From the UHGV virus genome UHGV-1747927: a stretch of 10,821 bases of DNA. One strand, 5' to 3'. This DNA comes from a virus. The notes under the pieces were generated by a model. It saw only the letters and a list, made by a program, of their open reading frames with translations, ran no database searches and was not told the origin of the DNA. Both the position numbers and the translations under genes were made by a program. This document shows, in pieces, positions 6,406 to 10,821 of this stretch; positions within the stretch are counted from its first letter, which is position 1; each line of letters starts with the position of its first letter.

Positions 6406-6451
6406 TCGCTTTGTCAGCGACGTAGGACGAATGTCCATTGTGAAAAGAGCG
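6406..6451 (-). promoter_or_regulatory. nutR-like site: boxA-like CGCTCTTTT and boxB hairpin UCGCU-GACAA-AGCGA
   Basis: Minus strand just after the cro stop. boxA-like at 6451..6443, boxB at 6420..6406 with a 5-bp stem and GACAA pentaloop. The boxA-boxB spacer is 22 nt, longer than in lambda. Confidence 0.5.
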
Positions 6452-6756: not shown

Positions 6757-7473
<717 letters not shown>

Positions 7474-7504: not shown

Positions 7505-7846
7505 ATGACACAATTTCAACTTGCATTAATCGCTAGAGAAGTTGATGGAGAAGTCATCCATCTTCGCACCAAAGACGGATACATCAATGCCACCGCGATG
7601 TGCAAGTCTGCGGGGAAGCTACTTGCTGACTATACACGACTAAAAACAACACAAGATTTTTTTGATGAATTATCACGCGATATGGGGATTCCCATATCGG
7701 AGTTAATTCAATCATTTAAAGGCGGAAGAGCAGAGAATCAAGGGACTTGGGTTCATCCAGACATCGCAATTAATTTAGCTCAGTGGCTATCTCCAAAATT
7801 TGCAGTGCAAGTATCGAGATGGGTGCGTGAGTGGATGTCAGGTTAA
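7505..7846 (+). CDS. KilA-N domain protein (113 aa) in the rexAB position
   Basis: KilA-N/Bro-N-like motifs (INATAMCKSAGK, GTWVHPDIAINLAQWLSPKFAVQVSRWV). AGGA lies 6 nt upstream of the ATG. It starts 31 nt after the cI stop on the same strand. Confidence 0.7.
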   Translation: MTQFQLALIAREVDGEVIHLRTKDGYINATAMCKSAGKLLADYTRLKTTQDFFDELSRDMGIPISELIQSFKGGRAENQGTWVHPDIAINLAQWLSPKFAVQVSRWVREWMSG

Positions 7847-7885
7847 AGAGCGCCTGCCGAACTCCCTATCCACCTTAAGCGGTAT

Positions 7886-8264
7886 ATGACAAACCGAGGC
7901 AGAGTTCCTCATACGCACTTTTCTATGCTTAATGAACTGACGTTTAACTTGGTTGCGCCACTTGAACAGGCCGGATATACGCTGCCAGAAAAAATGGTCC
8001 CTGATATTTCAGAGGGTAGGGTTTTCTCGCAATGGCTCCGTGACAACCGGGGGGTTGAGCCGAAGACATTCCCAACATATAACCATGAGTACCCAGATGG
8101 CCGGACATTCCCGGTACGTCTATACCCAAACGAATATTGCAGATTTCAAACAATACTTCAACGAAGTGTGGCTGCCTCAGTACGCTCCTAAATATTTTGC
8201 TGAACGAGACCAAAGGGCATTGACGTTGATTGAGAAAATCATGCTACCTGACCTTGATTCCTAA
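7886..8264 (+). pseudogene. Downstream ORF with apparent +1 frameshift (frames 7886-8191 and 7953-8264), in frame with KilA-N across a single TAA
   Basis: The 7886 frame looks protein-like up to about 8130 (...RTFPVRLYPNEY). The +1 frame looks protein-like only from about 8130 (ADFKQYFNEVWLPQYAPKYFAERDQRALTLIEKIMLPDLDS) and ends 8 nt before a terminator. The 7886 frame is the KilA-N frame and only one stop (7844-7846) separates them. Confidence 0.4.
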
Positions 8265-8272
8265 ATGTTATT

Positions 8273-8299
8273 CCCGGCCACAGAGCCGGGTTTTCTTTG
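8273..8299 (+). terminator. Intrinsic terminator ending the cI-KilA-N transcription unit
   Basis: CCCGGC, loop CACAGA, GCCGGG, followed by TTTTCTTTG. It lies directly after the stop at 8262-8264. Confidence 0.6.
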
Positions 8300-8450: not shown

Positions 8451-8513
8451 AACCATCTGCGGTGATGAATTATCTCTAGCGGTGTTGACATAAATACCAC
8501 TGGCGGTGATACT
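8451..8513 (+). promoter_or_regulatory. pL promoter with OL3-OL2-OL1 operators
   Basis: OL3 is AACCATCTGCGGTGATG (8451-8467), OL2 TATCTCTAGCGGTGTTG (8471-8487), OL1 TACCACTGGCGGTGATA (8495-8511). -35 TTGACA (8485-8490), 17-bp spacer, -10 GATACT (8508-8513). Nearly identical to lambda pL as recalled. Confidence 0.85.
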
Positions 8514-8581: not shown

Positions 8582-8596
8582 GCGCTGACAAAGCGC
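8582..8596 (+). promoter_or_regulatory. nutL boxB hairpin GCGCU-GACAA-AGCGC
   Basis: A 5-bp GC-rich stem with GACAA pentaloop about 60 nt downstream of the pL start. The same loop occurs in the nutR boxB. It matches the P22 boxB-left sequence as I recall it. No clear boxA was seen upstream. Confidence 0.5.
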
Positions 8597-8608
8597 AATA
8601 ACCAAAGT

Positions 8609-8710
8609 GAACTTTGGGGTGAATGCAGAAGCTAACCTTCTCGGCGGAGGCGCTTTGCAATGATTACGCTACCGGAGTTAGTCGCCCGGCTGTATTCACC
8701 GCCAAAGTTC
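8609..8710 (+). promoter_or_regulatory. Long-range leader stem enclosing about 70 nt upstream of N1 (candidate RNase III processing or translation-control structure)
   Basis: GAACTTTGGGGTGAAT (8609-8624) pairs with ATTCACCGCCAAAGTTC (8694-8710) with one bulge. The 3' arm ends 4 nt before the N1 Shine-Dalgarno (AGGAGG). The analogous stem before N2 carries compensatory changes. Confidence 0.45.
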
Positions 8711-8724
8711 ACCAGGAGGTCTAT

Positions 8725-9108
8725 ATGACACGCAGAACTCAGTTCAAAGGCAATTCACGTTCTCGTCGTCGTGAGCGTTTAAAGGCAAAGGCATTAGCTA
8801 ACGGCGTACTGGCCCGCGAAGAAGCAATAAGTTCAGAAGTATTACACCGCCCTACTCTAAGCAGAGCGCAGATTCAGGCTAAAGGTACTCACGAAACGCC
8901 TGAGCGCATAGAAGACGCTAAGCCAATTAAGTTCATGGCACAGGACGTGATCTGGCAACAGAAAGAATACAGACGCAATCTGGAGAGAGCGGCCATTGTG
9001 TACGCGAATGAGTTTGGACATAAGCAACCAGAAACTGGTGTATGTCTTCCAAATGTAGCTCTTTACGCAGCAGGATACCGGAAATCAAAACAACTGACGG
9101 CGAGATGA
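8725..9108 (+). CDS. N: N-like transcription antiterminator N1 (128 aa from the Shine-Dalgarno-supported ATG)
   Basis: First gene after pL and nutL. AGGAGG lies 6 nt upstream of the ATG at 8725. The N-terminal arginine-rich motif (KGNSRSRRRERLKAKALANG) resembles the P22-type ARM as recalled. The track start at 8623 would lie inside the leader stem and lacks a Shine-Dalgarno. Confidence 0.7.
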   Translation: MTRRTQFKGNSRSRRRERLKAKALANGVLAREEAISSEVLHRPTLSRAQIQAKGTHETPERIEDAKPIKFMAQDVIWQQKEYRRNLERAAIVYANEFGHKQPETGVCLPNVALYAAGYRKSKQLTAR

Positions 9109-9158
9109 CTTGTGTTGGTCGCCAGAAAATGAAATTAGGCAGCAAACCACTTATTTGA
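9105..9158 (+). other. 17-codon mini-ORF or fossil encoding a lambda-N-like C-terminus (MTCVGRQKMKLGSKPLI), -1 frame relative to N1
   Basis: Its ATG overlaps the N1 stop as ATGA. The peptide resembles the lambda N C-terminus (..ITCSGRQKIKGKSIPLI) as recalled. It is not in the N1 reading frame. Confidence 0.3.
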
Positions 9159-9166
9159 GGTGAGAT

Positions 9167-9637
9167 ATGACAAAATCATGGAGCGTACCTTTTCCTGAAT
9201 CAGAAACTGAACATGATGGAATGCCTGTTTTCTGGAGATTCCAAGCGACAGTTGAAGAAGATGGAATCAAAATATTCGCACTTCAATATATAGCTTTTCA
9301 TCAGACAGAGCATTATGCATGGTTGGTTCCTGCGCATTGGATTGTTAATTTTAAACCAGCACCAAATCAGTGGTTACAGGAATGGAAACAAAAGAGAAAT
9401 AGATATGCAATTAAGAAAGTAGCAAAAAATGCAGAAAGATCTTTTGCATTCCCAACGAAGAAACTTGCCATTGAGAGTTTATTGCGCCGGAAGAAATACC
9501 ATTTAATGAGAATCAAACAAGATTTGGCTGTTGTATCAACTCTTGTTGATGGGATGAAGAATATTGATACATCAACACCAGATATTGAATATAACTTTGG
9601 ACACAACCAAGAAACAGAAAATTGGGTATTCTACTAG
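9167..9637 (+). CDS. Hypothetical basic protein (156 aa), AT-rich cassette gene 1
   Basis: GAGGTG lies 5 nt upstream of the ATG. The composition is visibly AT-rich relative to the flanks and the C-terminal half is lysine/arginine-rich. No family recognised. Confidence 0.6.
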   Translation: MTKSWSVPFPESETEHDGMPVFWRFQATVEEDGIKIFALQYIAFHQTEHYAWLVPAHWIVNFKPAPNQWLQEWKQKRNRYAIKKVAKNAERSFAFPTKKLAIESLLRRKKYHLMRIKQDLAVVSTLVDGMKNIDTSTPDIEYNFGHNQETENWVFY

Positions 9638-9683
9638 GGCGCATAGCCGACTTTATTTTTGGCATAAACAATATGGGGTAAAA

Positions 9684-10010
9684 ATGAAAGTTTTAATGGT
9701 TTATGAAAATGTTCCAGAGTCGACTGAAATCTATATTTTTGATGCCAATGAAGATGAAGTTAACGATTTGAAATTGTCTCACGGAAATTACACAAATGCT
9801 AATTGTGATGAAAGTATCGAAAAAGCACTATCACGAGTTCTTGTCAGAATCAGTGATCCAGAACATTGTGATGATGATTGGCTTTCTTATTGTGAATCGG
9901 TAAAAACTGATGCAGGAAAATGGAGTAAAAGTAAAGTTGATAACTCAACCCCAATCATTATGAAAGATAGTGATATTGAAATGGTAATAATAACCGGAAT
10001 GATTATGTAG
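9684..10010 (+). CDS. Hypothetical acidic protein (108 aa), AT-rich cassette gene 2
   Basis: ATG at 9684 is preceded by GGGG. The track start at 9564 would overlap the upstream gene. The protein is Asp/Glu-rich and AT-rich. No family recognised. Confidence 0.5.
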   Translation: MKVLMVYENVPESTEIYIFDANEDEVNDLKLSHGNYTNANCDESIEKALSRVLVRISDPEHCDDDWLSYCESVKTDAGKWSKSKVDNSTPIIMKDSDIEMVIITGMIM

Positions 10011-10026
10011 GCTGCGAATAAGCACT

Positions 10027-10054
10027 GTGTATTCATTCCGACGAGTGAATACAC
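10027..10054. repeat. Perfect 9-bp-arm inverted repeat (GTGTATTCA, 10-nt spacer, TGAATACAC) 17 nt after the cassette stop
   Basis: Read directly. No U-tract follows on either strand, so it is not a canonical intrinsic terminator. Confidence 0.4.
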
Positions 10055-10400
10055 GGAGCAATGTCGCTCGTAACTAAACAGGAGCCGACTTGTTCTGATT
10101 ATTGGAAATCTTCTTTGCCATCCGAAATGCGGGAACTGAGTTTAACCAAACAGGAGGTGCCGTAATGGTGCACTAACGCGGTTAGACCGCAGCCGAAAGG
10201 CAATGCAGCAGTAATGATGCTGCCCCGAGTCGCGTAATGGCGAGCAGGTTTAGCAGACCGATGTGAGGGTAAATAAGGGAACATGCTCCGGAAAGGCAGC
10301 GCGAATGCCAGACGCGCACCGGTTATCAGCGGCTAATAAGCGACAGAGACTCAAGGGCATGAGCGCGCTCACTGCGAGAGTGTGAGTCAAAGAGTAGTTG

Positions 10401-10475
10401 GCTTTGGGGTGACGTGAAGTGCAGCTGCACGACGGCAACCGGAAGATAAGCACCCGGCGCGTCACCGCCAAAGTC
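10401..10475 (+). promoter_or_regulatory. Leader stem upstream of N2, analogous to the N1 leader stem
   Basis: GCTTTGGGGTGACG (10401-10414) pairs with CGTCACCGCCAAAGTC (10460-10475). The arms are the same as in the N1 stem except AAT/ATT is replaced by ACG/CGT, which preserves pairing. It is followed by the Shine-Dalgarno GGAGG and the ATG at 10493. Confidence 0.4.
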
Positions 10476-10492
10476 AATCATCGGAGGTCAAC

Positions 10493-10765
10493 ATGACAGT
10501 AGTCATTACTTATCTGGCTGACGATAACGCCAGAAATCGCCGCAGAGCACGCAGACAGGCTCAACGTGAACAGGCAATGCAAGAGCAGCGACTGGCGCGA
10601 AAAATTGCGCTGAAGCTCTCTGGTTGCGTCAGAGCAGATAAAGCAGCATCACTCGGAAGCCTTCGCTGCAAGAAGGCAGATGAATGCAGTGGAAGTATTT
10701 GCCTGCCAAACGTAGCCATTTACGCGGCAGGCTACCGGAAATCAAAACAACTGACAGCGAGGTAA
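10493..10765 (+). CDS. Second N-like protein N2 (90 aa) with a lambda-like arginine-rich motif and the same 21-aa C-terminal tail as N1
   Basis: GGAGG lies 6 nt upstream. The N-terminal ARM (NARNRRRARRQAQREQ) resembles the lambda N ARM (QTRRRERRAEKQAQ) as recalled. The C-terminal CLPNVAIYAAGYRKSKQLTAR is shared with N1. Confidence 0.6.
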   Translation: MTVVITYLADDNARNRRRARRQAQREQAMQEQRLARKIALKLSGCVRADKAASLGSLRCKKADECSGSICLPNVAIYAAGYRKSKQLTAR

Positions 10766-10768
10766 GTG

Positions 10769-10821
10769 ATGAATCAGACATACATTCCATCATGCTTGAG
10801 AAATCTGCCAAAGCAGAAAGC
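10769..10821 (+). CDS. Start of a further ORF running off the window (MNQTYIPSCLRNLPKQK...)
   Basis: ATG 3 nt after the N2 stop, open to the window end. Only 17 codons are visible, so support is weak. Confidence 0.2.
   Translation, partial: MNQTYIPSCLRNLPKQK

Follow-up and report, generated by a model that had tools for sequence, protein, structure and literature searches.

The viral genome UHGV-1747927 was analysed over a stretch of 10,821 nucleotides (nt), called the window below, whose plus strand corresponds to leftward (pL) transcription in a lambdoid phage. Two genes for N-type antitermination proteins, N1 and N2, lie in tandem behind a single pL promoter, and we conclude that this is the ordinary N/nut system in a rare mosaic form, in which the second N has been orphaned. 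With a probability of roughly 0.7, N2 is an intact N of the HK620 class that was captured behind N1 by illegitimate recombination between a tL terminator and the boxB of an HK620-type nutL, and that has since been carried as a neutral or nearly neutral passenger. The features that bear on this conclusion are the following.

6407–6419, minus strand: nutR boxB with a GACAA loop (TCGCUGACAAAGCGA), cognate to N1; exact pattern match, hairpin −6.4 kcal/mol
8485–8513, plus strand: pL, TTGACA-17-GATACT, within lambda-type oL operators; 10 of 12 positions match in a promoter scan
8582–8596, plus strand: nutL boxB GCGCUGACAAAGCGC, cognate to N1; hairpin −8.5 kcal/mol
8607–8712, plus strand: long stem of the N1 leader, of the lambda N-leader (RNase III-site) type; fold −50.5 kcal/mol, z −4.1
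8725–9108, plus strand: N1, a 127-residue N antiterminator of the HK97/H-19B/933W type; Pfam PF25694 (N_peptide), E 9.8e-16
10118–10135, plus strand: recombination joint, from alignment, hairpin energy and a pattern match with two mismatches
10397–10478, plus strand: long stem of the N2 leader, homologous to the HK620 N leader; fold −41.3 kcal/mol, z −3.4
10493–10765, plus strand: N2, an intact 90-residue N antiterminator of the HK620 type; PF25694, E 1.1e-15
10695–10761, plus strand: second copy of a 67-nt direct repeat; first copy at 9038–9104, 85% identity, spacing 1657

Both proteins, compared with N families as a preliminary description of this DNA had suggested, are N family members. N1 scored 58.5 bits against PF25694 (cutoff 27.9) and matched the PHROG family phrog_271, "anti-termination protein N-like", with E 9.5e-39; N2 matched the same family with E 4e-34. 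That description had two intact N genes with different N-terminal arginine-rich motifs (ARMs) behind one pL, and the open reading frames (ORFs) and family matches bear this out. It is also correct that N2 has its own leader stem and, 3' of it, its own GGAGG Shine-Dalgarno sequence. The HK620 N leader gives the same fold, and the N1 leader is built likewise, its stem stopping directly before a GGAGG. Alignment of N1 with N2 is confined to the C-terminal 22 residues (20 identical), which the 67-nt direct repeat encodes; the ARMs do not align.

N1 is the resident antiterminator. The segment from pL through N1 to the next gene, orf156, is ca. 98% identical to HK97, H-19B and many Shiga toxin phages; N1 itself has ca. 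98% nucleotide identity to the N genes of HK97 and H-19B and 99% protein identity to HK97 N. It is the first gene of the pL operon, 3' of nutL, with the same boxB at nutR. The GACAA-loop boxB, CGCTGACAAAGCG, occurs exactly twice in the window, in identical copies at 8583–8595 (plus strand) and 6407–6419 (minus strand), so that the proposed match of N1 to both nut sites holds; the boxA CGCTCTTT precedes the nutR copy, in the cro-cII intergenic sequence. A pattern search of the window revealed no lambda-type boxB, again as previously described. The H-19B N protein is a studied 127-residue antiterminator in which ARM residues R3, S11, R15 and R18 are required and C-terminal residues are important at distal terminators (PMC3526286). 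Judging from the ca. 98% DNA identity to this characterized gene, the N1 ARM should bind boxB and N1 should confer termination resistance. As the first pL gene, matched to both nut sites, N1 is most likely a functional antiterminator.

N2 belongs to a different specificity class. Its DNA is 98% identical to the N genes of HK620, HK630, HK140 and mEp213_047, its protein differs from HK620 N at 2 of 90 residues and is identical to the sole N of two other prophages (loci L006 and L009), and no decay is seen here. The exact protein is indexed in 5316 blocks of a public assembly collection; among the matches listed, it was the only N_peptide gene in 10 of 10 distinct contexts, directly after the repressor region. 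Relatives are encoded by 504 viral contigs. Since N2 is the sole N of other prophages, it is a mainstream, working N elsewhere. Its ARM had been described as lambda-like; its cognate boxB is not of the lambda type: at both nut sites of every single-N2 phage examined the cognate boxB is of the HK620 type, CCCGCCGAAATGCGGG, with the layout CCCGC-CGAAAU-GCGGG and an intact hairpin of −10.5 to −12.5 kcal/mol. In HK620, whose nutL and nutR are annotated, and in L006, L008 and L009, the boxA GCTCTTTAACA followed by this intact boxB stands at both sites. An intact HK620-type boxB was found no more than 700 nt upstream of N2 in all 56 evaluable single-N2 loci, while both tandem loci of the evaluable set keep only half of it. 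In every locus read, N type and boxB type co-vary strictly; mEp213 and an E. coli 97.3 locus (L007), for instance, combine lambda boxB at both nut sites with a lambda-type upstream N.

The usual partnership between an N and the nut sites of its own phage is broken for N2. Both nut sites in the 10.8 kb examined are of the GACAA type, and besides a half site at 10118–10133 the pattern search found no HK620-type boxB in the window. Nor is N2 the first pL gene, as the identical protein is in other phages; it lies 1.4 kb 3' of N1, past orf156 and orf108.

The origin of this arrangement could be read from the sequence just 5' of the N2 leader, which supports the earlier suggestion that recombination brought N2 in and places the joint to the base. 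At the joint, the left arm of an HK97-type tL hairpin (GCCATCC; GCCCTCC in HK97) runs directly into what is left of an HK620-type boxB, its loop and 3' arm (GAAATGCGGGAAC). The window reads TTTGCCATCC|GAAATGCGGGAAC; at the same place HK97 has TTTGCCCTCC-AGTGT-GAGGGC-TTTTTT, annotated as a putative terminator after gp45, and HK620-type phages have TGTCCCGCC|GAAATGCGGGAAC. In the alignment, the window tracks HK97 up to the left arm of the terminator, and follows the HK620-type leader from the boxB loop on. The crossover falls within the near-identical arms CCCTCC and CCCGCC. The 3' half of the boxB is retained at 10122–10133, and the two mismatches of the site at 10118–10133 are in its 5' arm. 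The hybrid hairpin has an energy of −2.9 kcal/mol, versus −11.1 kcal/mol for the HK97 tL and −10.5 or −12.5 kcal/mol for an intact HK620 boxB, and the T-run is gone. Since the hybrid folds as neither hairpin, the terminator and the N2 recognition site have both been destroyed.

Based on these data, the capture would have proceeded as follows. The HK97-like tL hairpin after gp45 would have recombined with the nutL boxB of an HK620-type phage, at a joint that discarded the donor's pL, boxA and boxB 5' arm and destroyed the recipient's terminator. After induction, RNA polymerase would start at pL, and N1, bound to the GACAA boxB at nutL and nutR, would make transcription termination-resistant. 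The pL transcript would then continue through orf156, orf108, the RNA element described below and N2. N2 would presumably be translated from its own Shine-Dalgarno sequence. With no cognate boxB on the RNA of its own phage, it should add nothing to that phage's antitermination; any action would have to be in trans, at the HK620-type nut sites of phages that are co-induced or co-infecting. No plus-strand terminator was found between N1 and N2, and a scan for σ70 promoters in this interval gave a single match (9 of 12 positions, 9976–10003), a count below the shuffle mean, in a consensus scan that could miss weak promoters. Without a terminator or a convincing promoter in between, N2 is expected to be co-transcribed from pL.

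The layout had been called unusual, and this is true of its frequency; it is not unprecedented. In phage mEp213 (JQ182733; PV340538 after re-sequencing) the annotation gives a tandem pair of "antitermination protein N" genes, and the joint is that of the window save for one base (GCCCTCC versus GCCATCC). Because both mEp213 nut sites carry lambda boxB, its N2 is orphaned too, and the presence of the same joint behind a different upstream N indicates that the block moves as a module. In L007 and in viral contig L041, a lambda-type N is followed by N2 ca. 390 nt further on. The joint there is a different one, GGAAT|GCCGAAATGCGGG, with another upstream partner, and again the 5' arm of boxB has been removed. 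The joint shared by the window and mEp213 was spanned in none of 5426 complete E. coli genomes and that of L007 in one; the exact pattern of the window joint had zero matches in GTDB species representatives (one genome per species) and zero in JGI metagenome contigs. An N upstream of N2 was present in 2 of 80 N2-encoding viral contigs (mEp213 itself and L041), and 2 of 58 evaluable N2 loci were tandem. The particular combination of N1 and N2 seen in the window was not found elsewhere in the genomes and contigs searched. A literature search found no paper on tandem N genes or on the N genes of mEp213. Thus, the tandem layout is real, recurrent and rare, and it has been deposited without being described.

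Joint sites were located at 10118–10135 in the window, 3990–4012 in L007 and 2555–2580 in L002. The two kinds of joint strip only the 5' arm of boxB, keeping loop, 3' arm and the whole leader, with different upstream partners. Either a recombination hotspot at the hairpin or selection against an intact second nut could account for this shared loss. Derivation of the L007 joint from that of mEp213 by deletion was considered and rejected, as L007 keeps one more base of the original boxB and has another upstream partner.

Several observations weigh against a neutral passenger. In each of the three backgrounds, which include two different joints, N2 is fully intact, and the fact that both joints cut the same boxB arm and keep the whole leader could reflect selection rather than neutrality. 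Only 10.8 kb are in view, and an intact HK620-type boxB hairpin, CCCGCCGAAAUGCGGG, might lie elsewhere in the genome. The N2 ARM may also recognize the GACAA boxB, a point taken up below.

If N2 is under selection, it could serve as an antiterminator of second specificity. It might act in trans on the nut sites of co-induced HK620-type phages, helping or parasitising them, or it might let the phage accept either type of immunity/nut module in mosaic exchange. We regard this as unlikely. HK620-type N/nut modules are certainly very common, as the block and contig counts given above indicate, and an intact N2 identical to working alleles, recurring in tandem in three backgrounds with two joints, is what selection would produce. 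The layout is, however, very rare (joints in 0 and 1 of the 5426 complete E. coli genomes, and 2 of 58 evaluable loci), and since the N2 copies are 98–100% identical to working alleles, intactness says little about selection on events this recent.

Alternatively, the selected cargo could be an RNA element that lies between the joint and N2.

10155–10398, plus strand: conserved structured leader RNA with a 5' Shine-Dalgarno sequence and mini-ORF; covariance model match of 233 bits
10165–10176, plus strand: mini-ORF of the leader RNA, ATG GTG CAC TAA, after the Shine-Dalgarno sequence

Compared with HK620, 266 nt are cleanly inserted into the N2 leader of the window, 3' of boxB and 5' of the leader stem. 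The element is ca. 240 nt long, a mini-ORF being followed by a structured part of ca. 210 nt. It is unannotated everywhere. None of the 4227 Rfam covariance models matched the window at E ≤ 1 or covered the element in 16 loci with diverged copies, and its conserved sequence strings were not found described in the literature. Related copies with 70–89% identity occur in phages of Hafnia, Klebsiella, Providencia and E. coli; a conserved 27-mer is present in at least 120 viral contigs, and the RNA itself in 113 of 5426 E. coli genomes. The Shine-Dalgarno sequence and mini-ORF stand at the start of 90 of 108 distinct copies; in 68 copies the mini-ORF has exactly three sense codons of variable sequence.

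For 55 sequences below 96% identity, most helices dropped out of the RNAalifold consensus, since the central domain exists in at least three length variants; a structure of eight helices was therefore built by hand on these sequences. Its helices are paired in 95.3% of cells, with compensatory change at 16 of the 34 pairs. None of 500 shuffles reached any of the measures, and slid controls paired at 26–37%. A further hairpin has at least five compensatory stem variants. Covarying pairs such as 212–226, in the 3' hairpin region, were rejected because two types of 3' module differ at many linked positions. With the covariance model, no diverged copy was found in the long N1-type leaders of HK97 or mEp213.

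The element is always found in leaders, either of pL operons, after nutL, or of late operons, where it follows spanins or lies between Q-like genes and holins. Late copies often have intrinsic terminators on one or both sides, and tRNA genes are sometimes adjacent. The evidence supports a real structured RNA tied to the leaders of antiterminated operons. tRNA genes lie directly 3' of the element in Klebsiella phage RothC and in another viral contig (L094 2789–2948; L155 796–868), so that it sits there among highly transcribed RNA genes clustered after Q. In E. coli BY63 (L009 4370–4570), a further insertion of ca. 200 nt, with its own Shine-Dalgarno sequence and an ATG-TGA start-stop, lies between the N2 leader stem and the N2 Shine-Dalgarno sequence. 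The N leader thus appears to be a hotspot for inserted noncoding modules. At a distance of ca. 900 nt from one copy of the leader RNA, a viral contig (L138 2241–2312, minus strand) has two CRISPR-DR4-like repeats with sub-threshold scores (E 0.004 and 0.014), which could form a mini-array or be a single isolated repeat unit.

That N2 is a hitch-hiker downstream of this RNA, on which selection acted, has some evidence in its favour. The element is present in every tandem case and in only 8 of 56 single-N2 loci (ca. 14%), being absent from HK620; both joints lie 20–37 nt from its 5' end; and it is a mobile module found in other operon leaders too. Against this, the sample is tiny, with two joints in loci that are not independent, and in other phages the RNA occurs without any N. 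We consider the idea improbable as an account of the capture. A broader proposal, which we put forward tentatively and at well below even odds, is that the block behind N1 is a cassette whose key part is an undescribed family of structured phage RNAs (a Shine-Dalgarno sequence, a conserved mini-ORF of 1–3 codons and ca. 210 nt with at least eight covarying helices). The family would be a new cis- or trans-acting regulator of lytic gene expression, with the orphan N2 travelling along. Retention of N2 itself for the HK620-type nut sites of co-induced prophages is a smaller possibility.

Recognition of the GACAA boxB by N2, or untethered action at high concentration, would make N2 a back-up or modulator of N1. 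N2 shares the polymerase-binding C-terminus of N1 (20 of 22 residues), both ARMs are arginine-rich, and with the tL terminator lost N2 would be made as soon as pL fires. Against this, recognition of boxB by the N proteins of lambda, P22 and phi21 is specific, the ARM sequences of N1 and N2 do not align, and the strict co-variation of N and boxB across the loci read argues against cross-recognition, which we judge quite improbable. N2 is best read as a passenger of a mosaic joint. The proposal that N2 is a Nun-like exclusion factor, made by the prophage to terminate transcription of superinfecting phages at their nut sites, draws its sole support from the pL-operon position and the mismatch of its ARM to the resident nut sites, and is very improbable, since BLASTP gave no alignment of N2 to HK022 Nun at E ≤ 100, the C-terminus is N-type and not the His/Trp-rich tail read from the HK022 Nun sequence, many phages have the identical protein as their sole N (10 of 10 contexts among those listed), and a consensus scan, which could miss weak promoters, found no convincing promoter upstream that would free N2 from the cI-repressed pL.

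Further features of the region are the following.

6760–7473: cI, lambda-type, with Peptidase_S24 and helix-turn-helix domains (Pfam)
8273–8290: terminator 5' of pL and 3' of a broken bstA-like gene
9105–9158, plus strand: remnant of a lambda-type N C-terminus (MTCVGRQKMKLGSKPLI*) directly after N1, in the ORF 9042–9158
9167–9637, plus strand: orf156, homologue of HK97 gp45; phrog_1636, E 5e-112, and HK97 annotation
9684–10010, plus strand: orf108, an insertion relative to HK97; phrog_4658, E 3.6e-37, no Pfam match
10022–10117, plus strand: HK97-type segment that normally precedes the tL terminator; in the alignment it matches HK97 up to the terminator

The motif of the remnant after N1 is also the end of the lambda-type N of mEp213. 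Similar remnants (…TCVGRQKMKLGSKPLI) were seen 450–1000 nt 3' of N2 in L010, L011, L019, L087 and others. These short remnants, just 3' of intact N genes of other types, are older recombination scars and show the N region to be a recurrent mosaic boundary. The segment at 10022–10117 holds a hairpin, a Shine-Dalgarno sequence and a TTG-TTC-TGA mini-ORF. Within it, a widely conserved stretch at 10071–10103 (plus strand) consists of TAACTAAACAGGAG and then this mini-ORF. The Shine-Dalgarno context of TAACTAAACAGGAG nearly equals that at the start of the leader RNA (TAACCAAACAGGAG at 10143), and the two may represent a related leader-module boundary.

Between cI and pL, a bstA-like abortive-infection gene (7505–8264, plus strand) is present in three pieces. 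The KilA-N part is at 7505–7846 (profile positions 6–121); a second piece at 7886–8191, in the same frame past a stop codon, covers positions 164–253; and the C-terminus, positions 245–301, comes from an ORF in another frame at 7953–8264. The gene looks like a pseudogene. The P63C protein of L090, used as a BstA reference, had no match to the window.

The tandem N genes amount to a natural experiment, in which two N proteins with different RNA-recognition heads and the same polymerase-binding tail are encoded on one transcript and only one of them has a tethering site. They offer a test of how strictly boxB tethering limits N action in vivo, and could show whether an N without a tether is in competition with the resident system, assists it or leaves it unaffected, or whether it acts on co-induced prophages. 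The joint is a case, resolved to the base, of illegitimate recombination in which both partners encode functional RNA hairpins, a terminator in one and a boxB in the other. It shows how a phage can take in a foreign regulatory module that has lost its promoter and recognition site. The leader RNA is perhaps the larger pay-off, being widespread, structurally supported, absent from Rfam and located in leaders that control early and late lytic transcription.

Of the systems already known, the N/nut system of lambda has the same ground plan as the window: pL, nutL, a structured leader, N as the first gene, the same boxB at nutL and nutR, and an N protein with an N-terminal ARM and a C-terminal polymerase-binding tail, of which N1 is the HK97/H-19B/933W variant. 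It differs in that here a second N of other specificity follows 1.4 kb downstream in the same operon, and the terminator normally found after gp45 is gone. HK022 Nun is likewise an ARM protein encoded by a pL-proximal gene, one that acts on the nut sites of other phages; it has no sequence similarity to N2, which carries an N-type tail in place of the Nun C-terminal tail. HK620 (AF335538) has the same N leader stem and Shine-Dalgarno sequence as N2. Its N is, however, the first pL gene, with boxA and an intact CCCGCCGAAATGCGGG at both nut sites, whereas the window keeps the 3' half of one boxB only and has the 266-nt RNA element in the leader. Phage mEp213 shares with the window the joint (one base off), the leader RNA and the N2 module behind another N, with N2 orphaned in both. 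The genes between the two N genes differ, and the upstream N is lambda-type in mEp213 and of the HK97/H-19B type, with GACAA boxB, in the window.

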